A stretch of DNA of 46,817 nt from Nitrospirota bacterium (GTDB lineage: Bacteria > Nitrospirota > Thermodesulfovibrionia > UBA6902 > DSMQ01): contig JACQXF010000079.1 in NCBI GenBank assembly GCA_016208855.1, positions 1 to 46,817 on the forward strand, given 5' to 3'. The position numbers and the translations under genes were made by a program. This document shows, piece after piece, positions 8,212 to 27,870 of the stretch. Position 1 is the first letter of the stretch, and each line of letters starts with the position of its first letter. The notes beneath the pieces were generated by a model, which searched no databases, was not told the origin of the DNA, and saw only the letters and a program-made list of their open reading frames with translations.

Positions 8212-10704
8212 ATGTCGCATAACAATTACATCTTTTCCCTCGGCGGATATGACGTTGAGATGGTTGAAATCAAGAATATCCTTGAATCAAAAGGGCTGAG
8301 ATTTTACGACAAAAATCTCTCATGGAGTAATGCTTCTTTATCTGCATACAAAGATGAGATTGGCAAAATCCCCTCTGATGCGATTCCGATTTTTATTGAA
8401 CTCAAGCTTGATTGTCCTTATCCTGAGAGGTCGATAATTATTGACCACCATGATGAAAAAGCGGGTAAGCGCCAAAAAACATCCATTGAACAGGTAGCCG
8501 AGTTACTCAAAATAGAATTAAACAGGAAGCAGCAGCTAATCAGTGCCAATGACAGAGGACACATCAGAGCAATGAAAAAAATGTGCGCTACTGATGTGGA
8601 AATAGCTGAAATCAGGGCATTGGACAGAAAGGCTCAAGGCGTTACAGATCAAGATGAGAAGTTTGCAGAGGAGTCAATTAAAAAGTGTCTTGAAGAGGTA
8701 GCCGATAACGCTGTAATAGTGAACAGTTCAACCAACAAAACATCTGCTGTTTTCGACCGCCTGTACGATAAATACAAACACATCTTTATTTTTACCCTTG
8801 ATGGTGAGATGAATTATTCGGGAACTGGAGAGGTTGTTAATCGGTTAGCTGATGAGTATAAAAAAAAGCAGGAGAAAGACACCTCAATAGAATTCTGGTT
8901 CGGCGGGAATCTGCCTGATTACGGTTTTTTTGGAACAAAGACGCATCTTGGTAAAGAGGAGATAAAAGAGATGGTCAAAATTAATGACAAAAAGATCATC
9001 TCCCAGCATATCTTCATGTTCCCGTTCAGGATAACCCCTAAAACCATAAATGGGAACTCATCTCCCGTCATTCCAGCTTGTCTGGAATCTTTCTCTAAAA
9101 ATAAAAAGAAGAAATCGTCTGCTGATGTAAATATGTGCGAGGTTATTCAATCAGTTGAAGCTGGAGGATGGCATTATAAGCCATACACAGTAGACACCGC
9201 TGCACATTACAGCGAGTATTACTATTTCTATGAATATGTTCAAAAGGCGATATTTGACCAAAGAGATATTGATGAAATTAAAGATTTTTTTAAGCAAGAT
9301 AAAAATCCAGACGTCATCTCGTATTACTTTGAACGCCCTGTAGCTAATGATTCTATAATGAGGATTCACATTAAAAGAGATGATAATGGGAAGCAGATAT
9401 GCTTTCATTATGATTTAACAATCCAACATATTTCATTAAGGCTTTTCTCTACAGACATCGGTATACTTACAATTGAACTCTATAATCACGAACATCCATC
9501 ATTTCAAGACGTTCTCTATATTAATGAATACGGCAGGAGGATTTATCCTCAATTCCTTCCTGATGATCGTGATATAAATATAGTTAAGGATAGCTTTCTT
9601 GCTGACGAAATAGTGTTTAAACTTGGTGAGATTGATTCTGTTGAGGATTTTTGCCCACCTAAAAAATACTTAGAAGGGAAATCTGAAAGGAAATTGGTTG
9701 TAGCAGACTATATCACAAAACTACTGGGTGATAACTTCACAACAAGATATAACTTTATCCCTATTATTGATGATAGGATGTTTAATGTATGCTGGTATGC
9801 TAATGCTGAACTTATTAAGGAATTGCAAAGGGAAGAATGCTTTACTGGCAAATATAAATATGAAACCTCTGATGAATGGTATAGCCTTGTCTTTATAGAT
9901 AACTCTGTCAAGAGTGTTTCAGCAGGCGGCAGGATGAAGCAGGACTTGATAAAACAGTTTACATATTCCAGATGGATTCACAAAGGAACTCTTTTCGGCA
10001 TCACACGCTACAGCTTGATGTGTTTAACCAACTCTACATTTGATTTTTTACGACATCACATGGAAAGGATATATTACCAGATGGCGATAATCCTCCTTGC
10101 TCAGAGGGCATCAATACTGAAATTTTCTGATGATGTCTCAGAAATCAGCGGCAAAATAGAGGGCATGAAAGGCAAGGATAAACAAAAAGAGGTTGAAAAG
10201 ATTGCAGATGATGTCAGAAAACTCCACTCTTCTTTTATCCGCTTTGTAAACAGACTATGGTTTACTGAGGTAACCCCGCAAGAGCAGGGGATTGAGATGT
10301 ATAATATGGCTGTTAAGAATATGGGGTTAAAAGAGCAATTGGATGAACTCCGGCATGAGATAAAGGAGTTGTATGAATTTGTAGATATGCAGTATGAGAA
10401 GATAAAGGCAGAGGATGACAGAAGAATAAACAAGACACTTTCAAGATTGAATTGGCTCGTTGTTATCTTTCTGCCAATAACGATTGTTTCGGGTTTACTT
10501 GGGATGAATATTTACACAACAAATGAAATCCCGGATATTATAAGCGTTCTTAATGAATTTTTTAATGTAGATATACATTATCAGAGGCTTTTTATTTTGA
10601 TTGCCCCCACACTACTTATCTATTTGCTCATTTTTGCTTGGTTCTTATGTCAAAAAATATATATTAAAATCAAAGAAAGGGTAACTGCTGTAAAATTAAA
10701 CTAA
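8212..10704 (+). CDS. CRISPR-associated NrN (DHH-family phosphodiesterase)-CorA-family membrane effector fusion
   Basis: N-terminal LGGYDVEM...IIIDHHD...SIEQVA...ISANDRGHI (NrN-like). Then HIFMFPF, EVTPQEQGIEMY and C-terminal TM-GMN-TM (FLPITIVSGLLGMN), as in CRISPR-linked CorA. Start placed at ATG 8212 after GGAG. Confidence 0.8.
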   Translation: MSHNNYIFSLGGYDVEMVEIKNILESKGLRFYDKNLSWSNASLSAYKDEIGKIPSDAIPIFIELKLDCPYPERSIIIDHHDEKAGKRQKTSIEQVAELLKIELNRKQQLISANDRGHIRAMKKMCATDVEIAEIRALDRKAQGVTDQDEKFAEESIKKCLEEVADNAVIVNSSTNKTSAVFDRLYDKYKHIFIFTLDGEMNYSGTGEVVNRLADEYKKKQEKDTSIEFWFGGNLPDYGFFGTKTHLGKEEIKEMVKINDKKIISQHIFMFPFRITPKTINGNSSPVIPACLESFSKNKKKKSSADVNMCEVIQSVEAGGWHYKPYTVDTAAHYSEYYYFYEYVQKAIFDQRDIDEIKDFFKQDKNPDVISYYFERPVANDSIMRIHIKRDDNGKQICFHYDLTIQHISLRLFSTDIGILTIELYNHEHPSFQDVLYINEYGRRIYPQFLPDDRDINIVKDSFLADEIVFKLGEIDSVEDFCPPKKYLEGKSERKLVVADYITKLLGDNFTTRYNFIPIIDDRMFNVCWYANAELIKELQREECFTGKYKYETSDEWYSLVFIDNSVKSVSAGGRMKQDLIKQFTYSRWIHKGTLFGITRYSLMCLTNSTFDFLRHHMERIYYQMAIILLAQRASILKFSDDVSEISGKIEGMKGKDKQKEVEKIADDVRKLHSSFIRFVNRLWFTEVTPQEQGIEMYNMAVKNMGLKEQLDELRHEIKELYEFVDMQYEKIKAEDDRRINKTLSRLNWLVVIFLPITIVSGLLGMNIYTTNEIPDIISVLNEFFNVDIHYQRLFILIAPTLLIYLLIFAWFLCQKIYIKIKERVTAVKLN

Positions 10705-11093
10705 TGGATATTCAAAGAGTCAAAAATTACTGGGTAGTAGAGGCAGAAGATGCCCTGCGAGTGATGCATCATTTATACGAGAAGGATGACTACTCGTATG
10801 CCCTGTTTTTTGGTCATCTTGCGATAGAAAAAATCCTGAAAGCCCTTTATGTTATTCGGAACAAGGAACATGCTCCTTACAGCCATAATCTTGAACGCTT
10901 GGCTGCGCTTTCCGGCATTGAATTAACTGACGATATAAGCAGCCAGCTTGAGAAAATTTCCCGTTATAATATTGAATCCAGATATCCTGATGATAAGCGA
11001 GAATTCAGAAAGCTATGTACAGAGGAGTTTACCAAAAATGAACTATCACAAATAGAGGAGATTTTTAAATGGCTAAGGTCAATGCTGATGTAA
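10704..11093 (+). CDS. HEPN domain protein
   Basis: AEDALR...YALFFGHLAIEKILKAL...HNL...SRYP. Start overlaps the corA stop. Confidence 0.85.
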   Translation: MDIQRVKNYWVVEAEDALRVMHHLYEKDDYSYALFFGHLAIEKILKALYVIRNKEHAPYSHNLERLAALSGIELTDDISSQLEKISRYNIESRYPDDKREFRKLCTEEFTKNELSQIEEIFKWLRSMLM

Positions 11094-11407
11094 TGGATAA
11101 GGCGCGTCAATTTCTTCTTGTGCTGAAAGAGCAGGGCATTAATATTATAGCAGCCTATCTTTTTGGCTCTTATGCGAAAGGAAATCCCCATAAATGGAGC
11201 GATATTGATATAGCTGTAGTGTCGCCTGATTTTTCATTAAGCAGATTTGAGAACAGCCTGTTTCTTATGAAGATTGCATCAAAAATTGATGTGTCTATTG
11301 AGCCGGTTGCATATAATCCTGAATCTTTCATTGACGAAGACCCGCTTGTATGGGAGATAAAAAAATCAGGCATACCATTGGAGATTAAACATGGAATTAA
11401 TCGTTAA
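11069..11407 (+). CDS. Minimal nucleotidyltransferase (MNT)
   Basis: YLFGSYAKG...WSDIDIAVVS. Confidence 0.85.
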   Translation: MAKVNADVMDKARQFLLVLKEQGINIIAAYLFGSYAKGNPHKWSDIDIAVVSPDFSLSRFENSLFLMKIASKIDVSIEPVAYNPESFIDEDPLVWEIKKSGIPLEIKHGINR

Positions 11408-11516
11408 ACTCAAACAACACACGCCGATAATCCACTTTCAGTGGGACCAGAAAGGCGCGACCCTGCGAGCTACGGAACTGAAGCCGAATCCTATTTGGAA
11501 AGAAGTTAACAAATAA
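11391..11516 (+). pseudogene. cmr1: Truncated cmr1 (type III-B RAMP) N-terminal fragment, 41 codons
   Basis: Reads MELIVKLKQHTPIIHFQWDQKGATLRATELKP-NPIWKEVNK*. LKQHTPxIHFQ...GATLRAxExKP is a Cmr1 N-terminal signature as I recall it. GGAG RBS at 11380. Confidence 0.65.
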
Positions 11517-11517
11517 T

Positions 11518-12978
11518 ATGAAAGGTGAGGATATGGAGAACTATTATCTACGTGTTGAAGCCGTAAATTTTACTTATTTTATCTACGATACTGATAAGAT
11601 TCAGCCAATGCGCGGCGGGAGCTACCTGCTGCTTGAAAGTGTTGCCAGTCTCGCTGGACAGAAGATTAACGGAATTGAGTTGAAGAAAATAATGGCGGGG
11701 GCGAGCATTGGCTTATTTTCTTTTAAGATTGCAGATGGTAACAAGGCTGGAGATATTGTCGCAGGAGTGAGAAAAATATTAAGTGACAAGACTGGGGGGC
11801 ACGCCACATTTGTAGTTGATGTGCTTAAGTCAATTAACAATTTTGAACGTGACAATGAGACCATTACGGCTATGAATAGATGGCAGCAGTTTCAGCAGCC
11901 AACCCTTGTGCTTCCCCAAAAAGAAGCTGAAAATAAGTGTTCTTATGACGGGGTAAGGCCGGGGGAGACATCCGTTCCTACTGCTGAAGGGGTTAAAGAG
12001 GTTTCATCCTCTGTTAAATTTAGGATGGATGAGGGAAAAAAAGAATTAAAAAAAAGGATATATCAACGAATACTTAAAGACGGTGAATTCAAAGAAGAAT
12101 TTACTGACGACCTTGGAGCGCTTTCGTGCATCTCTGACAAAGGGAATCTAAACAACAAGATGGCTTTTATTTATTTTGACGGAAATAAATTCTCAAAGAT
12201 TAGAGCCAATAAATGCACAAAGGAGGAAACACTCGCAGCCTTTAGCGAACGTGTGGAGGAGCGCCGAAAAGAGTTTCTCTGCGAGCTTATCAAAAAGGCA
12301 CAGGCAGAGCCTGATTTTAAAAACAACGACGCTATACGACTTGAAACGCTCCTATGGGGCGGGGATGAGTTTGAGATTGTGGTGCCTGCATGGAAGGGTT
12401 GGGATGTTTTGCGGTTGTTTTACAAGTGCATGAGCAATGCAGAATTTGACGGTGTTAATTTGACCCATGCGGGAGGCGTTATCTTCAGTAATCACAAGGC
12501 GCCGATCCGTCAGATCAGGAATATGGCTCGTAAGCTTGCGGATATGGCAAAGGATAAACTTCCCCCGGATTTTAAAAGCCTTAATCATAATAAACACGAT
12601 ATTGCTCTCTACATTATCATGGAGTCTTTCGATACGGTTGGACCGGATGTCAAGGATTTTGTAAGGCGATATTATGGGGACGGCTGTTATGACGATTTTT
12701 ATTTGACCTCTGACCGAATGGATAATATAAATGAAGCATTATCCCTTATGAAGAAAAACGGCTTCCCCCGCAATAAGATATTTGAGATTATACGCATTAT
12801 AAAGGGCAATCTACCTCAACAGAACGACAAGATTGATACTGTGCTTATAAAGGCTCTTTCTGAAGTTGAGGAGCAAGATAAGGTTTGTGCTGCAATTGAA
12901 AAAGTAATAGAAGGTAATTATCATCGCTGGCTTATGATTGCCGATCTATGGGACTATGCAGGGAGGGAACATGCTTAA
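11518..12978 (+). CDS. cas10: Short Cas10 (no HD domain, GGDE palm motif), type III-D-like
   Basis: FIYDT...MRGGSYLL, YFDGNKF, LLWGGDE, LTHAGGV...HKAPI. 486 aa. Alternative start at 11533. Confidence 0.8.
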   Translation: MKGEDMENYYLRVEAVNFTYFIYDTDKIQPMRGGSYLLLESVASLAGQKINGIELKKIMAGASIGLFSFKIADGNKAGDIVAGVRKILSDKTGGHATFVVDVLKSINNFERDNETITAMNRWQQFQQPTLVLPQKEAENKCSYDGVRPGETSVPTAEGVKEVSSSVKFRMDEGKKELKKRIYQRILKDGEFKEEFTDDLGALSCISDKGNLNNKMAFIYFDGNKFSKIRANKCTKEETLAAFSERVEERRKEFLCELIKKAQAEPDFKNNDAIRLETLLWGGDEFEIVVPAWKGWDVLRLFYKCMSNAEFDGVNLTHAGGVIFSNHKAPIRQIRNMARKLADMAKDKLPPDFKSLNHNKHDIALYIIMESFDTVGPDVKDFVRRYYGDGCYDDFYLTSDRMDNINEALSLMKKNGFPRNKIFEIIRIIKGNLPQQNDKIDTVLIKALSEVEEQDKVCAAIEKVIEGNYHRWLMIADLWDYAGREHA

Positions 12979-14740
12979 AAAGGCGACTATTAATATAACT
13001 CTGGGTATTCAGGGACCGATTCTCTGCAAGGCAACAGCTCCTTCTTCATGGGGAATAGACGCAACTTTTGATCGCGACTACAAGGGCATTCCATATATAG
13101 ACCGCAGTCATATCAAGGGCAAACTTAAAGAAGCCCTCAAGGAGCTTGGAACTGATGAAGCTAACCTTTATAGATGGCTTGGTGAAGAGCACAGTGACGG
13201 CGGTATGCTTATAATCTCTGATTTTTATTGTGTAGATAGCCCTACTGCTGTCCGCTATGACAATAGGCTCACGCGTACAAAGAGAGACAGGGTGCGTGGC
13301 GTTGTTGATGACACAGCGCTTCTTTCAATGGAAAATGCGTTCCCATTGAAAAATATGCCTTACAACTGGAATGGCTGCATAGAGTTTATCGCTGATGATA
13401 ATAGCATACAAGGTATTTACACGGAGATTGTAGCTGGTCTTAAATGGATTACTGCCGTTGGCGCTGAAAAAACAGTGGGTTTTGGGAAAATAGTGAGTGT
13501 AGAATCAGAAGAACCGAAGATAGAAGACTTGAGCTTTCCTGATCCTTTGCCGACAGCAAATCCGCCTGAGGAATGGTTTACTGTAACTATAGAGGCTGAA
13601 GATCCTCTCTTGATTGGCGGGGTTCAAAGGGCTGCAAATTACCGTGAGTCGGAAAGCATCATTCCAGGCGGCATGATAAAAGGTGCCCTTGCTGCAACAC
13701 TCAATAGGCTCTGTGGCGTTGATAAAGTATCAACCTCTATAAATAAAGAAAATACTAAGGTGTCAGAGCACTACAAGGCTCTGTCAGAACACTTTTCCAA
13801 AATACGATTTACCCATGCGTTTCCGACAACAGGCGACACAAGGCCGGTTGTTATCCCGTATTCGGCGGTTGCTGAGGGCAATAACTTTTATGATGTGGCT
13901 CTTAATGAAGGTGTTAAGCTTGTCAACGACAAGGCTCCAGTCTTTCAAACAGACTGGAAGAATTATCCCGACAATTTTGGATGGGCAATCCCGCGTTGTA
14001 TAGCAAAAACACGGACCGGCATTGACGGAAACCTTCGCAGGGCGGAAGACAACATGATGTTTACCTATCAATATGTCTGTCCTGTTGACAGCAAAAACAA
14101 CAAGATAATATGGTATGGGCTTGTCCATCTGCCAAATGATGACAGAGGCGCACTTCACACTGAACTTATAGATGCAGTGCAAAGGATTACCCGAATGGGC
14201 AAGAGAAGAAGCAAGGTCAAGGTGTCCATAACGCCGGGCAAATGTGGACATGCACAGATAGAAAATGGCGCTATTGCCAAAGATAGTGTCGTTATTGTCT
14301 CATTACAATCAGATGCTCTTATGGTAAATCCTTATGATATGCTGAAAAAGCAACAGACCGCAAAAGAACTGCATAAGCTGTATTGGGGAATTGCATCCGG
14401 TAATTCTATGGAGATGGTTAGATTCTTTGCACATCAAAAACTTCTTGGAGGTTATATAGTGCGGAAGCATGGCGGCAAATACTATCCATTTTCTCTTACC
14501 GGAGCCGGAAGCGTGTTTGTGCTGAAAGTTTCTAATGAAAATACTGCAAAGGGAAAAATAGATGAATGGAAAACCAATGGGCTTCTATTGCCTGAGTGGG
14601 CAAAAACAACATATAAAAAACACGGCAAAGAGTTATGGGAAACTTGCCCCTTTGTCCAAGAAAACGGTTATGGTGAGGTTATGGTAAATCTCAAATGGCA
14701 TTTTGCCAATCGCATTGACAATGCAGGAGGTGCAAAATGA
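12971..14740 (+). CDS. csx10: Csx10-like Cas7-Cas5 RAMP fusion
   Basis: Two RAMP modules: PYIDRSHIKGKLKE...GAEKTVGFG and IPGGMIKGALA...ENGYGEV. Start placed at ATG 12971 after GGAGG. Confidence 0.75.
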   Translation: MLKKATINITLGIQGPILCKATAPSSWGIDATFDRDYKGIPYIDRSHIKGKLKEALKELGTDEANLYRWLGEEHSDGGMLIISDFYCVDSPTAVRYDNRLTRTKRDRVRGVVDDTALLSMENAFPLKNMPYNWNGCIEFIADDNSIQGIYTEIVAGLKWITAVGAEKTVGFGKIVSVESEEPKIEDLSFPDPLPTANPPEEWFTVTIEAEDPLLIGGVQRAANYRESESIIPGGMIKGALAATLNRLCGVDKVSTSINKENTKVSEHYKALSEHFSKIRFTHAFPTTGDTRPVVIPYSAVAEGNNFYDVALNEGVKLVNDKAPVFQTDWKNYPDNFGWAIPRCIAKTRTGIDGNLRRAEDNMMFTYQYVCPVDSKNNKIIWYGLVHLPNDDRGALHTELIDAVQRITRMGKRRSKVKVSITPGKCGHAQIENGAIAKDSVVIVSLQSDALMVNPYDMLKKQQTAKELHKLYWGIASGNSMEMVRFFAHQKLLGGYIVRKHGGKYYPFSLTGAGSVFVLKVSNENTAKGKIDEWKTNGLLLPEWAKTTYKKHGKELWETCPFVQENGYGEVMVNLKWHFANRIDNAGGAK

Positions 14741-16473
14741 GCGGGATGCTTAAGGGCGGAACTTTTACAAACCGCTATGTGTTCAAGGCTCAGATAACTG
14801 CCTTATCTCCTTTACATATAGGTTCTGGAGAGATGATAGAAAGGACGGGATTGGAGGATGATAAAAATAAACTGCTCCAAATTTCTGGTGTTATTGTTGA
14901 CGGAGGAAATCAGCCTAAGCCATACATCCCCGGCAGCAGTCTGCGAGGGGTAATGCGCGATTGGCTGAGGGATGTATGGGGAGAGACAGATAGGGAACAT
15001 GATGAATTAAAAGAAAAGATTAATCCGCTAATTGAGAATGCTAAAAAGAAGAATGCCAAGCCTGAAGAAATTTCAAAAGAGATTGCCGGTATTATCACAA
15101 CAAACGAGCAGCGTTTGGAACTCCTCTTCGGCTCTGCCTTTGCCGAAGGCAAAATAGAGGTCTGGGACGCTCCCTGCGCATCTCATGTTAATACGCCAAC
15201 TAACAATACGTGGAGCGGCTGGAAGAAAGACTGCCTGACTTATGTTGCAAAATCAGTAGCGATTAACCCTAAGACAGGGACCGCCGAGGATAAGAAGCTT
15301 TATAATTTTGAGCTTGTCCCGGAAGGGGCATGTTTTGGTATCACATTGACCGGACAAAACCTGAGCGATAAAGATGTGGCTCTCATTTTACACGCATTAG
15401 ACGGCTTTGAACATTTTACATCACCGCTTGCCCTCGGCTCAATGACGAAACGCGGCTTTGGGAGATTCTCTCTTTGTAACCTTACGGTGTACCGTCTGGT
15501 AAAAAATGAAAAGAGGGATGACATTAAAACATGGAAGGAATTCTGTGCAAAGGATAATCTTGCCGGATACGATAGTATTTGCAGGGAAACATTTAAAATA
15601 AAAGACAAGTCTGAAATTGAACGGCTCAAAAACCTTATTATATGCCCGGCATCAACCTCTGTGCATTTAAGAACAGACTGGACATTGAATCTTGAAACAC
15701 CTCTTGTAGTGAGAAGCGGGAGCAGTTTTGCATGGGAAAATGCAGCCGAGAAGAAGACAAGAAATTACAAGATGAAATACATGTGGGGCCATAAAGCAAA
15801 TAAGCAGAATGACGAGCATGACATAGGAGATATCTATTTCAGTATCAGAATTGAAGGCGACAAGGCGGTGCCATACTACCACATCCCGTCAAGCAGTATT
15901 CGCGGCTCTTTGAGGGAATGGACGATTAAACATCTCCTGCCAGAGGATTGGTGGGATATTGAAAAGGGACTCAAAAAACATGCTGAAAAGAATGACGATT
16001 CCTACAAGTCCTTGCCGCGATACCTTGATGATATACTTTTACTTTTTGGCTTTGTAGTAAAAACCTGCGATAAAAAATTAGATGAGAAATATACCTGCGC
16101 CGGTCGGCTCATCATAGAAGTGTCACCGCTTGTAGGAAACTATCCACAACCTGATGTGGATGGGACATGGAATAATAATATTAACAATCCGAATAATTAC
16201 GGACCCACAAATGCTAAACGGCATATCAAAACCCGCAATCCCCTTGACCGCATTACCAATGCGGCTAAAGAAAAAGGGTTGCACAGCGGTCTTGAATTTT
16301 CAAAAGGTCAGTCCTTCACGGTTAGGCTTACTGTTGAAAATCCAACTGATTTTGATAGAGAACTTATTGACTGGTGGTGCAACGAGATAAATACGGGCAT
16401 GATCCGCTTCGGTGGTCTTTCAAGTATTGGACGGGGCAGAGTAACTGCTCAGGAGGTACAAGATGTCAAGTAA
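14737..16473 (+). CDS. Double Cas7 (Csm3-like x2) RAMP protein
   Basis: SPLHIGSG...PYIPGSSLRG...LGSMTKRGFG and TPLVVRSG...IPSSSIRGSLR...FGGLSSIGRG. Confidence 0.8.
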   Translation: MSGMLKGGTFTNRYVFKAQITALSPLHIGSGEMIERTGLEDDKNKLLQISGVIVDGGNQPKPYIPGSSLRGVMRDWLRDVWGETDREHDELKEKINPLIENAKKKNAKPEEISKEIAGIITTNEQRLELLFGSAFAEGKIEVWDAPCASHVNTPTNNTWSGWKKDCLTYVAKSVAINPKTGTAEDKKLYNFELVPEGACFGITLTGQNLSDKDVALILHALDGFEHFTSPLALGSMTKRGFGRFSLCNLTVYRLVKNEKRDDIKTWKEFCAKDNLAGYDSICRETFKIKDKSEIERLKNLIICPASTSVHLRTDWTLNLETPLVVRSGSSFAWENAAEKKTRNYKMKYMWGHKANKQNDEHDIGDIYFSIRIEGDKAVPYYHIPSSSIRGSLREWTIKHLLPEDWWDIEKGLKKHAEKNDDSYKSLPRYLDDILLLFGFVVKTCDKKLDEKYTCAGRLIIEVSPLVGNYPQPDVDGTWNNNINNPNNYGPTNAKRHIKTRNPLDRITNAAKEKGLHSGLEFSKGQSFTVRLTVENPTDFDRELIDWWCNEINTGMIRFGGLSSIGRGRVTAQEVQDVK

Positions 16474-18958: not shown

Positions 18959-19328
18959 TGGATATATGCAGAAGGCTCAAAATAAATTGGAAGTGGCTGA
19001 ACGGCTTTTCAAATCAGGAGATTATGAGGATGCGGTTTCAAGGGCTTATTATGCAGTCTTCCATGCAACTCAGGCTCTGCTTTTAACTGAAGGACAACAT
19101 GCAGAAACCCATAAAGGCATTGTTTCGCTCTTCGGACTCCTCTTTGTGAAGACAGGAAAATTTGACAGAAACCTTGGGAAATATCTTGCAAATCTAAAGG
19201 ATGACAGAGAAAGCGGTGATTATGAAGTCTTTTCGTATATTGATAAAGAAACTGCTGAGACAGCCTTACATGAGGCAAAGGAATTTTTAAAAGAAGCAAA
19301 AATCTATCTGGACAAGTTAGGGGGATAA
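18930..19328 (+). CDS. HEPN domain protein
   Basis: AVSRAYYAVFHA...TH.G...RESGDY. Overlaps the MNT gene. Confidence 0.85.
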   Translation: MDPVTKSLIDGYMQKAQNKLEVAERLFKSGDYEDAVSRAYYAVFHATQALLLTEGQHAETHKGIVSLFGLLFVKTGKFDRNLGKYLANLKDDRESGDYEVFSYIDKETAETALHEAKEFLKEAKIYLDKLGG

Positions 19329-20419: not shown

Positions 20420-22564
20420 GTGGATATGGGTCTCTTTGAAGAAATATGTTCTTTTAATACTCTCCTCTTGGCCTTTGACAGGGTTGAAGAAAACGGGGGC
20501 TCTCCCGGAATTGATAATGTAACCATTGAGGAATTCTCCATTGATCTTAAAACCCGACTTCTTGAATTAAGGAAACAACTGCTTGATGGAACATACTCTT
20601 CGTCTCCATTGCGCAAAGTGGGCATTCAAAAACCTGATGGTAAAATCAGATGGCTTTCTATCCCAACGGTTAAAGACAGAACCATACAGACATCAGCCGC
20701 AATGATCCTTTCCCCGATTCTTGATGCCGAGTTTGAAGAATGCAGTTTTGCTTACAGAAAAAACAAGTCTGTACAGAAGGCGGTGCACAAGGTTATTGAC
20801 CTCAGAGATAAAGGCTATACATGGGTAGTTGACGCCGATATTCGTTCATTCTTTGATGAAATCAATCACGCCCTCCTCATAGAAGAAATCAGGAAATATA
20901 TAAAAGAAGACAGGGTTATAGAGTTGATAAAAAAGTGGCTTGATGCAGATGTTGTTTATAAAGGCGAAAAAACAAGGTTAACAAAAGGCCTACCGCAGGG
21001 TTCTCCGATATCCCCTCTGCTTTCCAACCTTTACCTCGACTCTTTTGATGAGGCATTGATGGAGGAAAAATTCAGGCATGTCCGTTTTGCCGATGATTTT
21101 GTAATACTCTGCAAGGACAAACCTGATGCAGAGGATGCGCTCGAACTTACAGAGGATGTGCTCAAAAAGCTAAAACTGCAACTGAACGCGGAAGAGACGC
21201 GTATTGTTCATTTCAATCAGGGCTTCAGATACCTCGGCATGGACTTTTTAAGGTCTATGGTATATCGTCCTATTTATGAAGATAAATCAGATTCAGAACA
21301 GGAAACAGCCCTCAATGACGTCTCAAATGACAAGGAAAGATTGCGCAGAACAAAGCCTGAAATAACCTCTAAACCTGCTGATACCGTCCGGAAGAAAAAG
21401 CGCCATATGAATAATGCTGAACAAACAACATCCGAATTGCCTGATACCGTTATGGCAATGGCATTAAAAAAAGCGATGGAAGGAGCCGAAAGAGAGGATT
21501 TTGATTTTCTCCTTGAAGAAAAGATTGAGATAGAACCTACGGCGTATAGTGATCCCTTTTTACGAACACTTTATCTCCTTGAGCAGGGTGCGGTTTTGAG
21601 GAAAGAAGATGAAAGATTTGTAATCACGAAGGATGACAGAGCAATAAAAGAAATCCCGCTTATAAAGGTTGACCAGATACTCATATTCGGCAATATTCAG
21701 ATTACAACCCAGGCAATGAAATTTTGCCTGGAAGAAGACGTCCCGATTATTCTCCTGTCAAGCAGCGGGAAATATTTCGGCACAGTAGAGTCTTTTAAGA
21801 GCGTAACAATTGCCCTGCATAAAAAACAGTTTGAAAGGAATGACGACAGAAAATTTGCCTTGAATATTGGCAGGACTATAGTAAGAGCAAAAATCAATAA
21901 CTCAAAGGTCCTGATCCAGCGATATGCAAGGAAGAGAAAAAGTCTCAATCTTGAATCAGAGATCCATGCTATCAATCTCTTGGTTGACAGGCTGCCTTCT
22001 ATAAGCAACCACGAAGAATTAATGGGGATTGAAGGCGCTGCCTCTTCAAGATATTTTTCAGCGTTCAGGGCTTTAATTGGCGAGGAATGGGATTTTACGA
22101 AGAGGAAGAAAAACCCGCCTCCCGATCCGGTTAACAGCCTGCTGAGTTATGGATATACACTCCTTTTTTACAACGTCTATGCGATGATAAGAATGCACGG
22201 ACTTCATCCTTATGTAGGCTTGCTGCATAGCATAAGGGAAGGACATCCAGCCCTCGTTTCCGACATGATGGAAGAGTTCAGGGCGCCTATTGTGGATGCG
22301 GTCGTTATAAATCTGATTACAAGGCGGAGTCTTAAAAAAGAGGATTTTATAATTCCGGAGGATGAACGTTCCTTATGCCTTTTAAGAGATAACACGAGAA
22401 AGATATTTATAAAGGCCTTTGAAGGGAAGATGAACAGTTCTATAGCTCATGAAGCAACAGGGTATCAAGTGGATTACAGAAGGTGCATAGACCTGCAGGT
22501 GCAGGCCATGAGAAAGGTAATTGATGGGAAACTGTCGGAATATAAGCCTATGATGATTAAATAA
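20420..22564 (+). CDS. cas1: Reverse transcriptase-Cas1 fusion
   Basis: RT motifs PGID, IPTVKDR, DIRSFFD, GLPQGSPISPLLSNLYL, RFADD. Charged linker. Cas1 motifs GIEG...YF, DPVNSLLSYGY, GLLH, SDMMEEFR. GTG start at 20420 or ATG at 20426. Confidence 0.92.
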   Translation: MDMGLFEEICSFNTLLLAFDRVEENGGSPGIDNVTIEEFSIDLKTRLLELRKQLLDGTYSSSPLRKVGIQKPDGKIRWLSIPTVKDRTIQTSAAMILSPILDAEFEECSFAYRKNKSVQKAVHKVIDLRDKGYTWVVDADIRSFFDEINHALLIEEIRKYIKEDRVIELIKKWLDADVVYKGEKTRLTKGLPQGSPISPLLSNLYLDSFDEALMEEKFRHVRFADDFVILCKDKPDAEDALELTEDVLKKLKLQLNAEETRIVHFNQGFRYLGMDFLRSMVYRPIYEDKSDSEQETALNDVSNDKERLRRTKPEITSKPADTVRKKKRHMNNAEQTTSELPDTVMAMALKKAMEGAEREDFDFLLEEKIEIEPTAYSDPFLRTLYLLEQGAVLRKEDERFVITKDDRAIKEIPLIKVDQILIFGNIQITTQAMKFCLEEDVPIILLSSSGKYFGTVESFKSVTIALHKKQFERNDDRKFALNIGRTIVRAKINNSKVLIQRYARKRKSLNLESEIHAINLLVDRLPSISNHEELMGIEGAASSRYFSAFRALIGEEWDFTKRKKNPPPDPVNSLLSYGYTLLFYNVYAMIRMHGLHPYVGLLHSIREGHPALVSDMMEEFRAPIVDAVVINLITRRSLKKEDFIIPEDERSLCLLRDNTRKIFIKAFEGKMNSSIAHEATGYQVDYRRCIDLQVQAMRKVIDGKLSEYKPMMIK

Positions 22565-22566
22565 GA

Positions 22567-22842
22567 ATGTTCTATATGGTAAGTTATGACATAACAGATA
22601 ACAAATCCCGCCGCAGGGTTCAGAAAATCCTTGAGGGGTTTGGTGAAAGGGTTCAGTATAGTGTATTTGAATGCACTATTTCTGAGTCACAGTATAGAAG
22701 TCTTACAGAAAAGATTGCATCAACAATTGATAAGGAATCCGATAGCGTAAGATACTACAGGATGTGCAACGGTTGCCGTAAGAATATTGAATTCTTTGGA
22801 GAAGGACAGATAATGGAAGACGATTATTTCTTTATGGTATAA
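22567..22842 (+). CDS. cas2: Cas2 (copy 1)
   Basis: VSYDITD...RVQYSVFEC...DSVRYY. Confidence 0.92.
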   Translation: MFYMVSYDITDNKSRRRVQKILEGFGERVQYSVFECTISESQYRSLTEKIASTIDKESDSVRYYRMCNGCRKNIEFFGEGQIMEDDYFFMV

Positions 22843-22844
22843 GT

Positions 22845-23120
22845 ATGCTTGTTGTTGTAAGTTACGATATAACAGATAATAAAAGAAGGAGCAGTGTTTC
22901 TAATGAACTGAAGAATTTCGGAACGAGGGTCCAGAAAAGCATTTTTGAATGTCACTTAAATGAGAGACAGTTAAAAGAGTTAAAAAGCAGGCTTGACACA
23001 TTGATTGATCTCTTAGAAGATCATGTGCGGTTTTACTATCTCTGCAAGAAAGATATAGATAATATTGAGGTTGAAGGCAGAAAAATGGCATACAAGGATG
23101 ATGACTATTTCATGATATGA
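22845..23120 (+). CDS. cas2: Cas2 (copy 2)
   Basis: VSYDITD...RVQKSIFEC...DHVRFY. Confidence 0.92.
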   Translation: MLVVVSYDITDNKRRSSVSNELKNFGTRVQKSIFECHLNERQLKELKSRLDTLIDLLEDHVRFYYLCKKDIDNIEVEGRKMAYKDDDYFMI

Positions 23121-23199
23121 CTTAAAATCACCGTCTGAGGCATTCCCATTGAATAACTAACTTATGATATACTGATAAAAAAGATTGAAGGAGGATCTT

Positions 23200-23442
23200 A
23201 TGGTAAAAGCCATAGCAGCGATTTATGAAAATGGGGTCTTGAAGCCTGAGAAAAAACTCTCCATTCCAGAGCACAGCAGGTTAAAATTAAAAATTGAATG
23301 GCAGCCGCCTGTTCTTTCTGATACAGAAAAACTTGCCGGCTGTTTTAAAAAGTATGCTTTAAAGAAAGCAATGTCTCTGAATAAGTCTATTGATACAGCG
23401 GTAAAAATAGTTGCCCATGAAATTGCCCAAAAAAATAATTGA
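23200..23442 (+). CDS. AF2212/DUF104-like antitoxin
   Basis: AIYENGVLKP motif, GGAGG RBS, upstream of a PIN gene. Confidence 0.75.
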   Translation: MVKAIAAIYENGVLKPEKKLSIPEHSRLKLKIEWQPPVLSDTEKLAGCFKKYALKKAMSLNKSIDTAVKIVAHEIAQKNN

Positions 23443-23830
23443 TGCCAATGTCATTCTGAGGTTTTTCCTTGCTGATGTCGAGAGTCAGTTTCTACAAGCA
23501 AAGTCTTTTTTGCAGTTGATTGAACTCGGCGAAGAAGATGTGCTAATGACAGAGGTAATATTTGCAGAAGTTGTTTGGGTATTAAGCAAAGTTTACAATA
23601 TCCCGCGTACAGAAATAACAGAAAAGTTTAGCAGTCTTATAAATTACGAGGGGATAAAGACGATTCTAAATAAGGACATATTCTTAGAAAGCTTACGACT
23701 GTATGCTATGCATTCTATGGATATTCAAGATATTTTTCTGGCAGTTCTTTCAAAGTCTAAAGACCTCTCTATTGTGACATTTGACAAAAAAGACTTTAAA
23801 AAGCTCGGTTGTAGTTTCAATGAACCCTGA
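23417..23830 (+). CDS. PIN-domain (VapC-like) toxin
   Basis: IIDANVILRF, E-VVWVL, D-x-x-D, TFDK. Confidence 0.85.
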   Translation: MKLPKKIIDANVILRFFLADVESQFLQAKSFLQLIELGEEDVLMTEVIFAEVVWVLSKVYNIPRTEITEKFSSLINYEGIKTILNKDIFLESLRLYAMHSMDIQDIFLAVLSKSKDLSIVTFDKKDFKKLGCSFNEP

Positions 23831-23834
23831 GCAT

Positions 23835-23895
23835 GGAAAAGGACAGATTATGTATGATGACTATTTTATAATATGACTTAAAATTACCGTCTGAG
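23835..23895 (+). repeat. Duplicated cas2 3' end plus downstream sequence
   Basis: 23854-23895 matches 23098-23139 at 39/42. 23835-23852 matches 22798-22815 at 16/18. Confidence 0.8.
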
Positions 23896-24121
23896 ATGGA
23901 AGGACTTAAAGGGAACATTTAGCAACCAACTATAACTAATGGTAAATTAAACAGATTTCTGCTAAATTTATATTAAGCCTCAGGCGGCGCTTGAAAATAT
24001 TGAATAATACTTGCTCTTTGACAACTATTTGTGGTAAAAACGGTTATATATTTATACAAAAATGCTTTCAGGCTGGAAATGGCGAATCCAGCCTTGATAG
24101 TAATAGGTTCCCGGAGGTGAG
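23896..24121 (+). promoter_or_regulatory. Putative CRISPR leader
   Basis: AT-rich non-coding stretch before repeat 1, with an 8-bp inverted repeat AGGCTGGA/TCCAGCCT at 24070-24094. Confidence 0.6.
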
Positions 24122-25105
24122 ATGAGATAGAGCCGATAATAAGAGGCAACTGAAACACCGCGTGCGTCACTGCAATTAACTGAAATTCATGAGATAGAGC
24201 CGATAATAAGAGGCAACTGAAACATCTGAGCAATCAATTGATATCGCACCGCTAGTGTATGAGATAGAGCCGATAATAAGAGGCAACTGAAACCAACCGC
24301 GTGCGTCACTGCAATCAACTGAAATTCCATGAGATAGAGCCGATAAAAAGAGGCAACTGAAACCTCCCGGCTCAGTTATAACTAATGAGGTGCTATAAAA
24401 TGAGATAGAGCCGATAATAAGAGGCAACTGAAACCTGCCATTGTACTTATTAGCCCCCCTGCGGAGATAAAATGAGATAGAGCCGATAATAAGAGGCAAC
24501 TGAAACTAACAACTACAACTGTAATTACTACAAGCAATCCTGTATGAGATAGAGCCGATAATAAGAGGCAACTGAAACAAACAAACGCTCTGCGTCTCCT
24601 CTACCAGTATCATAAAATGAGATAGAGCCGATAATAAGAGGCAACTGAAACTCCTTTCTTTGTGTACCTCCCATTCGGGATCCTTTATGAGATAGAGCCG
24701 ATAATAAGAGGCAACTGAAACGTCTGAAGACTCCGCAAATATCGCACTTTTCTAATGAGATAGAGCCGATAATAAGAGGCAACTGAAACCTTCGGATCGA
24801 GCGGAACGGAAGGATCGAGCGTAAACATGAGATAGAGCCGATAATAAGAGGCAACTGAAACGCAAAATGTCGCAGGTGGTAAAGTAGATGGCAAAAATGA
24901 AATGAGATAGAGCCGATAATAAGAGGCAACTGAAACGTCCTTGGGACTGTACGAATTCCACACTTTCGCGTATATATGAGATAGAGCCGATAATAAGAGG
25001 CAACTGAAACTTTTAATAAGAGGCAACTGAAACCAAACAACCGCGGTTGTAAAATTACGATTGTTTCAAAATGAGATAGAGCCGATAATAAGAGGCAACT
25101 GAAAC
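24122..25105 (+). CRISPR. CRISPR array: 14 full 35-nt repeats (ATGAGATAGAGCCGATAATAAGAGGCAACTGAAAC), one 20-nt partial repeat, 13 spacers of 32-40 nt
   Basis: Repeats start at 24122, 24189, 24259, 24329 (one substitution), 24400, 24472, 24544, 24617, 24687, 24755, 24827, 24902, 24976 and 25071. Partial repeat at 25014-25033. The ACTGAAAC 3' end and leader position suggest + strand transcription. Confidence 0.97.
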
Positions 25106-25127
25106 TTTTGGCAGCAAGCATCTGCTT

Positions 25128-25382
25128 AATGTAGCTGATGACGGTCGCAGAGGGGAAATAGCCTCTGAACTAAAGAACTATGGTCAAAGAGTTCAAAAAA
25201 GCATTTTTGAATGTTATTTGGACAATGAGCAAATTGTTGAACTTAAGACCTTAATAGAAAAATATATGGATTTTGGAGAAGACAGTGTGCGATATTATTA
25301 TCTATGCAGAAAGGATGAAAATAATACGGAATATTTAGGCAAAAATATACTCTATAAAGATGATGACTATCTTATGATTTAA
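25128..25382 (+). pseudogene. cas2: Third cas2, 5'-truncated
   Basis: Startless frame NVADDGRRGEIASELKNYGQRVQKSIFECYLD...DSVRYYYLC...KDDDYLMI*. Lacks the MxxxVSYD start. Not in the ORF track. Confidence 0.85.
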
Positions 25383-25401
25383 AACTCAACAAGGGGGTAA
25401 T

Positions 25402-27870
25402 ATGGCAGAGCAGTTGCCTTATATTTTTTCGAGACAAAGAGAAGGGAAGTGGTACACCTTTTTTGCAATAAAATTGAATTCAATATTAACTTTCGATCCG
25501 GAGCATGGAGAGCATAAAAATTTTGCATTTGAGCTGCTTAACAGACAGATTGATTTTATCAATACTCTTGACTGCCCGGAAGATGAACGGGTTATTAATC
25601 TCAGATTTATATGCAGACCTGATCCATCTTTTTACAGGCGGGGGAAAATAGATGTAGTGTTAATAATCCGAATACCTTCAGAAGATAAAGACATTTCTAT
25701 CATTAAAGCCAAGAAGGTATTCAATGACATATGGCCGATTATAACTTCGATATCTGAGAATTATGAATTTGAACCTGTATTCAATCAGGATGAATTTCAT
25801 TCTTTTTATAAACCCTTCCCAATTAATTCCGTTGCAGAAATTGCCCGCAGAGACGATATTATTGAGATTAACACAGCAAAGAGAATAAGAGTAAAAGGGT
25901 TCAGCAGCGAAGGGAATACCGAACTCTCGGGAGTAATTGATAATGATAAAATATATTATACATATCCGTTCATTTGGGGGGCTAATTCTGTCTCAAGGAT
26001 ATTTAAGACAATGCAATATCAGAAATTCCCTTCAATGGTCAGCATCATACTTAAGCCTGTGGCGTTTAACGATGATATAGAAAAACTATTTCTTGAAAAA
26101 CTTGAAAAAATAGAGGCTACAGTTGCCCTGCATAGAAACACTTCCCGTATTCAATCAATTGCAAAGAATCTTAACAGTCAACTGTTGAGGATAGAGGACT
26201 CTCCCTTTTATCTGAAAATTTTGGTAGCATCTGAAGGCGAAGTTGCAAAAGGTCTTATTGATTCAGTTGGTGTTGAAATAACGGAACATGCCGGGTCGCC
26301 TGATATTGTAAAAGACACTAATGATGATTATGTATTCTCAGGGGGATACGAATGGTATTATCTGGAAAAAGAAAAAGCAGAGAATGAAATAGAATGGCTG
26401 GATATTAATTTCAGCGTACCATCAGTTGCCCCAGGGGACGATAAAAAAATGCGTTATATTTTTGATTCAACTCAGGCGAACTGCGCCTTCAGATTTCCTG
26501 TCCCTGATATGAATGAAACACCGGGCATCACGACAAAATTTTATAAAAGTGTTATGCCTCCTTCCAATATCCCGGAAACTGGAGTACTGCTTGGACACAG
26601 CACAAGAGAAGGAATATCCCAAATGATCAGGATTGACAGGGATGACAGAAGACGGCATATGTATATTGCAGGGCAGACAGGTACAGGCAAGTCAACTCTG
26701 CTTCTAAATATGATTCAACAGGATATTGAAAATAATGAGGGATTGGCTGTCCTTGATCCTCATGGTGAATTGATAGACGAGATTATGTTAAGGATACCCG
26801 AACGAAGAATAAATGATGTAGTTTATATAAATTTTGAGGACACTGAAAGCCCTGTCGCAATTAATATGCTTGAGTGCAAAACAGAACTTGAGAAGGATAT
26901 GGCTGTCAACCATATGATGGAGATATTTGGCAGACTATATGATCTGGAGCAGGCAGGCGGGCCAATGTTTGAGATGTATATGAAAAATGCTCTTTATCTA
27001 ATACTTGAGGATTCAGATTCCGGAGCTACACTATTGGATGTGCAGAAAGTATTTGGCGACCGTAATTACAGAAACTATAAACTCTCAAAAGCCGGCAATA
27101 GTGTAGTTGTAGAATTTTGGAAAAAGATAGCTGAGGAGGCAGGTGGTGAGAGCAGACTGGAAAACATGGTTCCCTATGTAATAAGCAAGCTTTCAATGTT
27201 TATTTACAACAATACGGTTAGGAATATTATTGCTTCACAAAAGTCCTCAATTAATTTCAGAGAAATTATGGATAGCGGGGAAATTTTATTAGTAGATCTT
27301 TGCAAAGGAAAGCTTGGAAAGACAAATAGCGATTTTCTCGGCATGGTCATAGTAAGTAAGATTTTAACTGCTGCACTTGGCAGGAGTGAAATTGAAGATA
27401 AGAAATCTTTGAAGGATTTTTATCTTTATGTTGACGAATTTCAGAATCTTGCAACAGACAGTTTCGTATCCCTGCTCTCTGAGGCAAGGAAATACAGATT
27501 AAACGCCATACTCGCAAATCAGTATTTAACTCAAGTCAATGAAGATGTTCTGCATGCCATATTCGGAAATGTAGGATCAATGATAACATTTCGTCTTGGG
27601 ATAAATGATGCTGCTTTAATGGAAAGAGAGTTTTATCCGGTCTTCACCGGCAATGAAATTATAAAATTGCCAAACTGGACTGTATGCTCAAAAATTCTAT
27701 CAAAGGGTGAAATCTTAAGACCTTTTGTGATGAATACGCTTTCTGGATCTGAAGGGAAAGATCCGAATGTAGTACGAAAGATCAAAGAGCATTCAAGGGC
27801 AATTTATGGAAGGGATGCACGAGATATAGAGAAGGAAATACTTGTTCGATACAAGAAGATCTATAACTGA
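25402..27870 (+). CDS. HerA/VirB4/TraG-superfamily P-loop ATPase with uncharacterised N-terminal half
   Basis: RRRHMYIAGQTGTGKS, LAVLDPHGE, YLYVDEFQN, SEARKY, ANQYLTQ, FGNVGS. No obvious TM. Confidence 0.85.
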   Translation: MAEQLPYIFSRQREGKWYTFFAIKLNSILTFDPEHGEHKNFAFELLNRQIDFINTLDCPEDERVINLRFICRPDPSFYRRGKIDVVLIIRIPSEDKDISIIKAKKVFNDIWPIITSISENYEFEPVFNQDEFHSFYKPFPINSVAEIARRDDIIEINTAKRIRVKGFSSEGNTELSGVIDNDKIYYTYPFIWGANSVSRIFKTMQYQKFPSMVSIILKPVAFNDDIEKLFLEKLEKIEATVALHRNTSRIQSIAKNLNSQLLRIEDSPFYLKILVASEGEVAKGLIDSVGVEITEHAGSPDIVKDTNDDYVFSGGYEWYYLEKEKAENEIEWLDINFSVPSVAPGDDKKMRYIFDSTQANCAFRFPVPDMNETPGITTKFYKSVMPPSNIPETGVLLGHSTREGISQMIRIDRDDRRRHMYIAGQTGTGKSTLLLNMIQQDIENNEGLAVLDPHGELIDEIMLRIPERRINDVVYINFEDTESPVAINMLECKTELEKDMAVNHMMEIFGRLYDLEQAGGPMFEMYMKNALYLILEDSDSGATLLDVQKVFGDRNYRNYKLSKAGNSVVVEFWKKIAEEAGGESRLENMVPYVISKLSMFIYNNTVRNIIASQKSSINFREIMDSGEILLVDLCKGKLGKTNSDFLGMVIVSKILTAALGRSEIEDKKSLKDFYLYVDEFQNLATDSFVSLLSEARKYRLNAILANQYLTQVNEDVLHAIFGNVGSMITFRLGINDAALMEREFYPVFTGNEIIKLPNWTVCSKILSKGEILRPFVMNTLSGSEGKDPNVVRKIKEHSRAIYGRDARDIEKEILVRYKKIYN

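Follow-up and report, generated by a model that had tools for sequence, protein, structure and literature searches.

Gene content of the locus

We have analyzed a type III CRISPR-Cas locus in the genome of a Nitrospirota bacterium (GenBank assembly GCA_016208855.1; 2.44 Mb, 99.65% complete). It is found in JACQXF010000079.1, one entire contig of 46,817 nucleotides (nt), which will be referred to as the window. According to the list of open reading frames (ORFs) and to scans with Pfam, NCBIfam and PADLOC, the region from 8.2 to 27.9 kb is a single co-directional run on the + strand. The order is NrN-CorA, a HEPN/MNT pair, Cas10, three RAMP genes (coding for 600, 578 and 647 amino acids, aa), an MNT/HEPN pair, Cas6, a reverse transcriptase (RT) fused to Cas1, two Cas2, an AF2212-like/PIN pair, a CRISPR array and an ATPase. 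An initial annotation, made from the letters of this DNA alone, had listed NrN-CorA, an HD-less Cas10, three RAMP genes, cas6, RT-cas1, multiple cas2, an array and the ATPase as a co-directional series without any CARF or SAVED effector. All these parts are present on the + strand, and the three scans give no CARF or SAVED match anywhere in the window. CARF genes exist in the same genome on contig C49, beside a separate III-A-like remnant.

The window Cas10 was not found among 40 relatives from the same family or order, so the locus was acquired as an island. The right edge of this island is marked by a tRNA-Leu(GAG) gene, which is on the minus strand. The signalling and effector genes are given below; numbers such as 2.1e-39, here and in the rest of the text, are E-values.

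8212-10704, + strand: NrN-CorA fusion, 837 aa (the ORF opens at TTG 8191); NrN (DHH) at about aa 11-263, CorA soluble domain, two C-terminal transmembrane (TM) helices
11518-12978, + strand: HD-less Cas10, 486 aa; two Palm domains, Cas11-like C-terminal domain, GGDEF at 281-285
12938-14740, + strand: Cas7-5 (Cas7 fused to Cas5/Csx10), 600 aa; sole PDB match 9wxh_C
14737-16473, + strand: Cas7-2x, 578 aa, a fusion of two Cas7 domains; equivalent to the N-terminal part of Cas7x3; Pfam RAMPs 2.1e-39, in two stretches
16463-18406, + strand: Cas7-insertion (TIGR03986-type RAMP), 647 aa; corresponds to Cas7.4 of Cas7x3; NCBIfam TIGR03986 1.2e-38

The effector complex

The sole PDB match of Cas10 is the III-D2 Cas10 9wxh_B (3.8e-59), with aa 7-53 and 57-484 aligned. 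Palm1 begins at about residue 10, which leaves no place for an HD domain; about 70 Palm1 residues of 9wxh_B have no counterpart in the shorter window protein. Cas7-5 aligns end to end with 9wxh_C (4.9e-64, aa 14-587 against 2-609 of 635). The equivalent of D29, the catalytic Asp of Cas7.1, is an Asp at aa 41, and this position is Asp in 63 of 70 Cas7-5 sequences. For Cas7-2x, the best PDB match is 9wxh_D, the Cas7x3 protein of 1235 aa (1.4e-21, over residues 19-79 and 108-287 of this chain). Cas7-insertion matches best the same chain at residues 565-631 (1.6e-12), with the III-Dv Cas7-insertion 8s9t_E at 7.5e-06. Since the two proteins match the N-terminal and Cas7.4 parts of 9wxh_D, Cas7x3 is encoded here as two genes, which overlap by 11 nt. 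The single fused Cas7x3 polypeptide that strictly defines III-D2 is absent, so we call the locus III-D2-like, not a strict member. A separate cas11 or csx19 gives no match among the operon ORFs in Pfam, NCBIfam or PADLOC; the leftover ORFs are toxin-antitoxin (TA) pairs.

The residues of the studied III-D2 enzyme have been mapped through the alignment of Cas10 with 9wxh_B and a 34-member family alignment, with the following result (SAM, S-adenosylmethionine).

E8: E14 in the window Cas10; conserved in 32/34 of the family; SAM-contacting
N11: conserved; 34/34
S29: conserved
Q186: Q124 in the window Cas10; 34/34; SAM-contacting
D286: conserved; 34/34
GGDE: conserved; D in 34/34, E in 33/34
D307: Ser in the window Cas10; in the family Ser 12, Asp 20, Gly 2 (n = 34)
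W124: Ile in the window Cas10; Ile in 18/34

What we say of the studied III-D2 system comes from the available part of its description (Mitsuda et al., Nat Commun 2026, PMC13294483). E8 and Q186 of its Cas10 hold the amino-acid part of SAM. The complex makes SAM-AMP as well as SAM-AMP2, and W351 of Cas7-5 is needed for SAM-AMP2, not for SAM-AMP. The loop with W351 is absent from the window Cas7-5; it is present in 7 of 70 Cas7-5 sequences, all of them in one fused-Cas7x3 sub-clade. Because this loop is absent, SAM-AMP2 is not expected, and the predicted product is SAM-AMP only.

NrN-CorA and signalling

PADLOC finds DHH_CorA at aa 12-263 (7e-63) and CorA at aa 267-819 (4e-115) of the fusion protein. 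Its aa 11-261 cover the full length of the solved NrN 9lq9_A (1.8e-36), with a DHH motif at aa 85-87. The GMN motif is found as LLGMNIY, and TM-like segments lie at about aa 749-776 and 797-827. Such fusions are widespread: of 8000 proteins scored, 338 reach E <= 1e-10, and 94 of the 120 best matches span at least 88% of the 837 residues. Those of Aliarcobacter are 35% identical to the window protein over 97% of its length. In its available part, Chi et al. 2023 (PMC10600005) places the fused nrn-corA of Aliarcobacter butzleri and relatives in the SAM-AMP CorA-1 cluster, describes RT-Cas1 in loci with CorA, and an NrN which is either adjacent to CorA or fused with it, and reports that NrN is a SAM-AMP-specific phosphodiesterase in Bacteroides fragilis. 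DHH-CorA fusions had already been noted in the accessible text of Shmakov et al. 2018.

SAM-AMP signalling through CorA may be recognized by a CorA with an adjacent or fused SAM-AMP-degrading enzyme and by a Cas10 with the E8 and Q186 residues. Both features are found here, the former as the NrN fusion and the latter as E14 and Q124. Judged from its sequence, the locus most probably uses SAM-AMP as its signal to a membrane channel. The initial annotation had proposed the same, and with these NrN and CorA matches and the SAM-contacting residues kept it is still the best reading.

We consider the whole as a complete, probably active type III locus of the III-D2 family, carried by a horizontally acquired island and using a SAM-AMP/CorA mechanism; we would give this reading a probability of roughly 0.8. 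The system might work as follows. The array would be transcribed in the + direction, and Cas6 would cleave the transcript so that an 8-nt ACUGAAAC tag is left. By homology to PDB 9wxh, the CRISPR RNA (crRNA) would assemble with one copy each of Cas10, Cas7-5, Cas7-2x and Cas7-insertion. This complex would bind a complementary foreign transcript and cleave it at least at the Cas7.1 site, with Asp41. A non-matching 3' anti-tag would activate the Palm pocket of Cas10, where the residues needed are conserved and SAM and ATP would be joined to SAM-AMP, the predicted product. SAM-AMP would then open the CorA channel and cause growth arrest. The NrN domain fused to CorA, with its homology to the solved NrN (1.8e-36) and its intact DHH, would hydrolyse SAM-AMP and reset the system. 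New spacers, including RNA-derived ones, would be added by RT-Cas1 with the two Cas2 proteins (Cas2a and Cas2b), as expected for members of their families.

Comparison with known systems

The typical content of III-D2 is Cas10, Cas7-5, Cas7x3, CorA and a TA module, and its growth arrest requires CorA and the GGDE motif of Cas10, according to the available part of the paper (PMC13294483). The system studied there, from Gammaproteobacteria bacterium HyVt-522 (PDB 9wxh/9wxi/9wxj), has many features in common with the window: an HD-less GGDE Cas10 with a Cas11-like C-terminal domain, a Cas7-5 fusion, a terminal Cas7 with an insertion, no cas11 or csx19 gene, CorA, Cas6, an associated PIN-type TA pair and the SAM-contacting residues. 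On the other hand, the window has Cas7x3 as two genes (578 + 647 aa vs 1235 aa), a shorter Cas10, no W351 loop in Cas7-5, and NrN fused to CorA; it also adds RT-Cas1/Cas2/Cas2 and the HEPN/MNT pairs. In most loci with a fused Cas7x3, only the C-terminal part of CorA is detectably similar to the window protein.

The III-Dv system of Synechocystis (PDB 8s9t-8s9x; bioRxiv 10.1101/2022.06.13.496011, available part) also has separate Cas7-2x and Cas7-insertion, one copy each. It differs in its Cas7-Cas5-Cas11 fusion and in Csx19, neither of which is found here; Pfam, NCBIfam and PADLOC give no Csx19 match. The similarity is far weaker (8s9t_D 0.0034, 8s9t_E 7.5e-06), and there is no Cas10 or Cas7-5 match at E <= 0.01. 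Judged by its proteins, the locus is III-D2 in sequence and composition, and III-Dv-like at one gene joint.

The III-B CorA-NrN systems of Bacteroides fragilis and Aliarcobacter, in the accessible text of Chi et al. 2023 (PMC10600005), are alike in the DHH NrN beside or fused to CorA, in the HD-less Cas10 and in the SAM-AMP logic, and some of these loci have RT-Cas1, as in the window. Their effector is Cmr, whereas the window has a III-D-type complex of fused RAMP proteins. We have also considered a new subtype of the III-G/H/I kind. This was rejected: the Palm domains of those subtypes are inactivated (2025 classification paper), while the GGDEF of the window Cas10 is intact.

What we have here is not a new system but a variant of one already known, and its differences from the studied III-D2 recur in public genomes. 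The suggestion in the initial annotation that the combination may be undescribed does not hold: the effector falls in the III-D2 family, whose SAM-AMP/SAM-AMP2 synthesis and CorA-dependent growth arrest were shown in 2026; papers of 2018 and 2023 had described NrN-CorA fusions and CorA loci with RT-Cas1; and a public locus has the same gene order. That annotation had said it would be contradicted by a described III-D clade with the same content. This is largely what we find, with the effector in the III-D2 family.

Relatives and phylogeny of Cas10

Cas10 has a sizeable family: 419 of the 8000 scored match it at E <= 1e-3, and most of these carry the annotation hypothetical. A scan with one genome per species confirmed 183 relatives, and the best 80 loci were kept. 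The ORFs of these 80 loci were compared with the window proteins using phmmer (E <= 1e-3). The counts which follow are lower bounds, as many contigs end early.

Cas7-5: 79/80 loci
Cas7-2x: 68/80
CorA: 51/80
Cas7-insertion: 50/80
Cas6: 33/80
NrN: 23/80
Cas2: 22/80
RT: 20/80
ATPase: 0/80

The Cas7 genes other than Cas7-5 have the following architectures in the same loci.

Two genes, as in the window: 31/80
Three separate genes: 16/80
Fused Cas7x3: 11/80
Cas7-5 fused to Cas7x3 (over 1,000 aa; 1,915-1,957 aa in three complete ORFs): 4/80
Architecture unassigned: 18/80

NrN is fused to CorA in 7 of the 80 loci, and apparently to the C-terminus of Cas7-insertion in two. A Cas10 tree was obtained by quick maximum likelihood, with Shimodaira-Hasegawa-like approximate likelihood ratio test (SH-aLRT) support and a midpoint root used for drawing only. 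Both a phylogeny and a search for syntenic loci had been suggested in the initial annotation. In the tree the window Cas10 groups (support 100) with those of three loci which also have two genes, L001, L002 and L003; of these L002, from a public metagenome-assembled genome, has the same gene order as the window. The split of Cas7x3 is genuine, since all four members of this clade have two genes. The group is placed in a 22-row clade (support 98) which otherwise contains three-gene and unassigned loci; all 16 three-gene loci fall in it.

In one Acidobacteriota clade (L050, L054 and L062, with L026 cut by a contig end; support 99), Cas7-5 and Cas7x3 form a single ORF, so that the effector is almost one protein. 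These single-ORF effectors adjoin CorA, plus NrN in the three complete loci, and Cas5 and a separate Cas10 are retained.

The locus lends itself naturally to comparison with the only III-D2 system studied to date: the residues which determine the chemistry are shared, but its Cas7 genes are separate at one joint, the W351 loop is missing, and NrN is fused to CorA. It bears on whether SAM-AMP2 is limited to the sub-clade with the W351 loop, on whether such loci are switched off by NrN and not by a PIN toxin, and on how step-wise fusions toward Cas7-11 affect assembly. The 2025 classification paper states that CorA-bearing III-D loci encode no known SAM-AMP-degrading enzymes. This statement is qualified by the NrN homologues in 23 of the 80 loci of this Cas10 family.

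Adaptation module and array

The genes for processing and adaptation, together with the array, are the following.

19484-20419, + strand: Cas6; PADLOC Cas6 7.7e-60, Pfam CRISPR_Cas6 6.4e-15
20420-22564, + strand: RT-Cas1 fusion, 714 aa; Pfam RVT_1 3.2e-40, Cas_Cas1 5.3e-96; FADD at aa 223-226
22567-22842, + strand: Cas2a; Pfam CRISPR_Cas2 9.2e-26
22845-23120, + strand: Cas2b; Pfam CRISPR_Cas2 2.9e-24
24122-25105, + strand: CRISPR array with 13 spacers (32-40 nt) and 14 copies of a 35-nt repeat that ends ...ACTGAAAC; leader at 23831-24121
25128-25382, + strand: third cas2, of the Cas2b type, truncated at its 5' end; abuts the last repeat; start and first beta-strand missing

A YxDD-type RT motif fused to Cas1, with Cas2 adjacent, marks this as an RT-Cas1 module. 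Such adaptation modules of type III systems were reportedly described by Silas et al. in 2016. As in other type III RT-Cas1 modules, the RT is group II intron-like; the window differs in its tandem divergent cas2 and in the VirB4/HerA-type ATPase, which follows directly in a few genomes. The initial annotation was right in that the RT-Cas1 is of the kind able to take spacers from RNA; by its family membership, the window protein may do so. It is 63% identical to that of genome G339 and 60% to that of G475, whereas its identity to the L002 protein is only 35%, with no more than the RT part aligned. Since RT-Cas1 is close to G339 and G475 and far from the effector relative L002, the adaptation and effector modules have different histories.

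Cas2a and Cas2b are 44% identical, and the pair would fit a Cas2 heterodimer. In the literature searched we found no description of tandem divergent cas2 genes next to RT-Cas1. Such pairs also adjoin RT-Cas1 in L121 (11532-12073), L147 (3707-4281), L066, L068 and L069. The truncated cas2 shares 52% identity with Cas2b over 84 aa. An intact Cas2b-type gene occupies its position, before the ATPase, in G339 and G475, which suggests that a rearrangement put a TA pair and the array between cas2b and the ATPase.

In the array 13 of the 14 repeats are identical, and the last spacer, of 60 nt, contains a partial repeat. No other array in the genome has this repeat. Spacer 8 has an antisense match, of 28 of 35 nt, within a minus-strand transposase gene in contig C38 (Pfam HTH_Tnp_1 5.8e-12), so its crRNA would pair with the transposase mRNA. 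The other spacers, compared with their own genome, give nothing beyond chance matches of 13-15 nt. Spacers 1 (24157-24188) and 3 (24294-24328), at the leader end, are nearly identical, with one mismatch and differing ends, as if the same target had been sampled twice; these spacers have 0 exact matches in viral contigs.

Alternative readings

Several observations weigh against an active III-D2-family locus which signals with SAM-AMP. For the window and every unfused relative this reading is built on sequence, not on biochemistry. The absence of W351 depends on the alignment of a loop. The equivalent of D307 is Ser, at a position where the alanine mutant of the studied enzyme abolished synthesis; within the family, Ser occurs commonly at this position. 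The equivalent of W124 is Ile, and W124A retained activity (available part of PMC13294483). The 22-row clade of the window Cas10 is apart from the 58-row clade which holds all 11 loci with a fused Cas7x3. In 12 of the 16 three-gene loci no CorA or NrN is found with the window proteins as queries (L006, L007, L019, L023-L025, L035, L051, L053, L055, L072, L074), and the use of messenger or effector may vary within this Cas10 family. Finally, only one of the 13 spacers has a match, and a partial one. We should also note that the 12 loci without CorA belong to a family in which the SAM-contacting Cas10 residues are nearly invariant.

The Cas10 of the unfused lineage might make another messenger, a cyclic oligoadenylate (cOA) or a different conjugate, sensed by NrN-CorA. 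The Ser at D307 and the separate clade would fit this, and Hoikkala et al. propose a response to cyclic hexaadenylate (cA6) for some CorA clades. However, the equivalents of E8 and Q186 are kept, the enzyme fused to the CorA effector is NrN, whose activity in B. fragilis is specific for SAM-AMP, and Pfam, NCBIfam and PADLOC find no CARF, SAVED or Csm6-2 gene in the locus. We regard another messenger as quite improbable. It is very improbable, too, that the locus is a decaying composite which no longer gives immunity. Some signs of decay do exist: the truncated cas2 after the array, the partial repeat within the last spacer, a 47-codon remnant of a lipoprotein gene at 6778-6921 and the TA pairs inserted inside the operon. 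Yet every core gene is open and of full length when compared with its solved homologues, the catalytic motifs are intact, and nearly all array repeats are identical. The locus is an intact, probably active one which targets RNA, and we prefer the III-D2-family system with SAM-AMP signalling to both alternatives.

The trailing ATPase

The last gene of the run lies beyond the array.

25402-27870, + strand: soluble VirB4/HerA-type P-loop ATPase, 822 aa; Pfam DUF87 and TrwB_AAD_bind; 19 nt after the cas2 remnant

It has a Walker A motif, GQTGTGKST, at 424-432, and a Walker B motif. It has no TM segment and hence lacks the membrane anchor of VirD4, and a Pfam scan finds no secretion or conjugation genes in the window. 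An AlphaFold2 model was obtained with a predicted local distance difference test (pLDDT) score of 86 and a predicted template modelling (pTM) score of 0.73. In this model the C-terminal domain (385-786) has the P-loop fold of VirB4 and TrwB: it superposes on the VirB4 C-domain 4ag5_A with Z 30.2 and a root mean square deviation (rmsd) of 2.8 over 337 aligned residues. Further structural matches are TrwB 1e9s_F (Z 28.8), DndH-C (Z 28.0) and HerA (Z 25.2). The match of the entire chain to TrwK/VirB4 is loose (Z 20.0, rmsd 12.8, 585 aligned). The N-terminal domain (aa 1 to about 385) is rare, with 17 proteins at E <= 1e-5 for the N-terminal 400 residues.

Close orthologues are 48-59% identical, and they are found in the following contexts.

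G339: III-D1-like effector genes, CARF protein, Cas6, array with a similar repeat, RT-Cas1–Cas2a–Cas2b–ATPase
G475: RT-Cas1–Cas2a–Cas2b–ATPase
G643: array–RT-Cas1–Cas2–ATPase; the RT-Cas1 is distant (34% identity) and the repeat different
L095 (metagenome contig): ATPase–M48 peptidase–Cmr1
G376, G473, G477: the contigs end at the start of the ATPase

The ATPase is thus directly 3' of RT-cas1–cas2, on the same strand, in the four genomes with upstream DNA (the window, G339, G475 and G643), where its distance from cas2 is 19, 52 or 18 nt or the genes overlap. Since it follows RT-cas1–cas2 in 4/4 such genomes, the ATPase goes with the adaptation module. It is not part of the effector pathway. The initial annotation took it as a part of the system; its absence from the 80 related loci speaks against this, and what is left of the claim is that the gene travels with RT-Cas1/Cas2 in a few genomes.

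There are two ways to explain this association. The ATPase may be an independent defence or mobile-element gene of the island; as with the HerA-type ATPases of other defence systems, it would act together with a downstream partner of its own, which varies. We give this explanation about an even chance. The gene is missing from all 80 III-D2-family loci, 20 of which bear an RT, it appears in only one of 40 relatives, as partial matches only, and it is present in three of eight sampled genomes whose RT-Cas1 is at least 60% identical. Its downstream partners vary: a 133-aa and a CYTH protein in the window, a 331-aa and a HEAT-repeat protein in G339, G376, G473 and G477, and the M48 peptidase in L095. 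The copy in G475 is truncated and that in G477 is split. Among the structural neighbours of the ATPase are the defence ATPases DndH-C (Z 28.0) and Sir2-HerA / DUF4297-HerA (Z about 20-22), and loci with distant homologues have no array or cas match (0/14 genome and 0/10 metagenome loci, window queries). Its constant position directly after RT-cas1–cas2 in all four genomes argues against an independent gene, as does L095, with a Cmr1 gene 1.4 kb 3' of the ATPase.

Alternatively, the ATPase and the tandem Cas2a/Cas2b might belong to a portable RT-Cas1 cassette which is swapped between type III effectors, III-D2-like with NrN-CorA in the window and III-D1-like with a CARF protein in G339. The ATPase could then use ATP to assist spacer capture, in an undescribed role such as the translocation or unwinding of nucleic acid for delivery to RT-Cas1. 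We find this cassette with its helper rather doubtful: an independent island gene is more likely than a role in adaptation. Nevertheless, the link between the ATPase and RT-Cas1/Cas2, weakly supported as it is, is the only possibly new element of the locus. In the literature searched there is no description of such an ATPase accompanying RT-Cas1, and the link, if true, would add a new player to RNA spacer acquisition.

Some other proposals for this gene were discarded. As a general partner of III-D2 it fails, with 0 of 80 loci (phmmer, E <= 1e-3). As the PADLOC family 'HerA, type III coevolved' it matches in the P-loop alone (3.1e-4). The AAA ATPase and radical SAM protein upstream of the locus, hinted at as its partners by the context in G650, have a weak, domain-level similarity (28% over 187 aa; 34% over 70 aa). 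The cas2 remnant was considered as an orthologue of the first Cas2 of G339, left over from an RT-cas1–cas2–ATPase block; it is 52% identical to the window Cas2b vs 36% to that first Cas2 of G339, and G339 also has a Cas2b-type gene.

Toxin-antitoxin pairs

Four TA pairs, absent from the initial annotation, are found on the + strand in and next to the locus.

7339-8173, + strand: MNT (7339-7710) and HepT-like HEPN (7679-8173) pair, upstream of corA; Pfam Polbeta 8.9e-10, HepT-like_2 2.6e-31; NCBIfam MntA 1.5e-09
10704-11407, + strand: HEPN (10704-11093) and MNT (11069-11407) pair, between corA and cas10; Pfam HEPN 1.2e-18, NTP_transf_2 9.5e-12
18611-19328, + strand: MNT (18611-18958) and HEPN (18930-19328) pair, between the effector genes and cas6; Pfam Polbeta 4e-13, HEPN 1.1e-23
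23185-23830, + strand: AF2212-like antitoxin (23185-23442) and PIN toxin (23411-23830), VapBC-like pair; Pfam AF2212-like 1.7e-12, PIN 4e-12

The region from 7.4 to 19.3 kb holds two of the six HEPN matches of the genome and three of the 12 Polbeta-type MNT matches, a clear local excess. In the studied III-D2 system the TA module is needed for phage defence, not for growth arrest, according to the available part of PMC13294483. By analogy, the embedded pairs are probably functional accessories. With the window proteins as queries, HEPN/MNT and PIN homologues were not found in the 80 related loci, which has little weight for such short, fast-evolving proteins. One PIN protein was seen in L057.

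Neighbouring genes and other loci

Downstream of the ATPase, 28031-29188 contains the 133-aa protein (with a sub-threshold Imm70 match), the CYTH protein, which is class IV adenylate cyclase-like, and the tRNA-Leu(GAG) gene. Upstream of the CRISPR locus, 348-6766 contains several proteins without family matches, the AAA ATPase (3027-4646) and the radical SAM protein (5780-6766); these genes may be another defence-island module.

The same genome has, in contigs C46 and C49 (L089 and L090), a type I-C locus and the III-A-like remnant, which contains Csm3, Csm4, a Csx1-type CARF protein, a CARF-RelE protein, Cas6, Cas1 and Cas2. With the window Cas10 as query, no second Cas10 was found at this remnant.

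The 47-codon remnant at 6778-6921 is 57% identical to the C-terminal end of a 266-aa lipoprotein-like gene. This gene and a neighbour of 357/374 aa, both without family match, adjoin type III loci in L095 (2384-4264) and L001 (850-2765). A bPH_2 (bacterial PH-domain) protein is found just upstream of corA in both the window (6914-7336) and L001 (2737-3198), with 56% identity.

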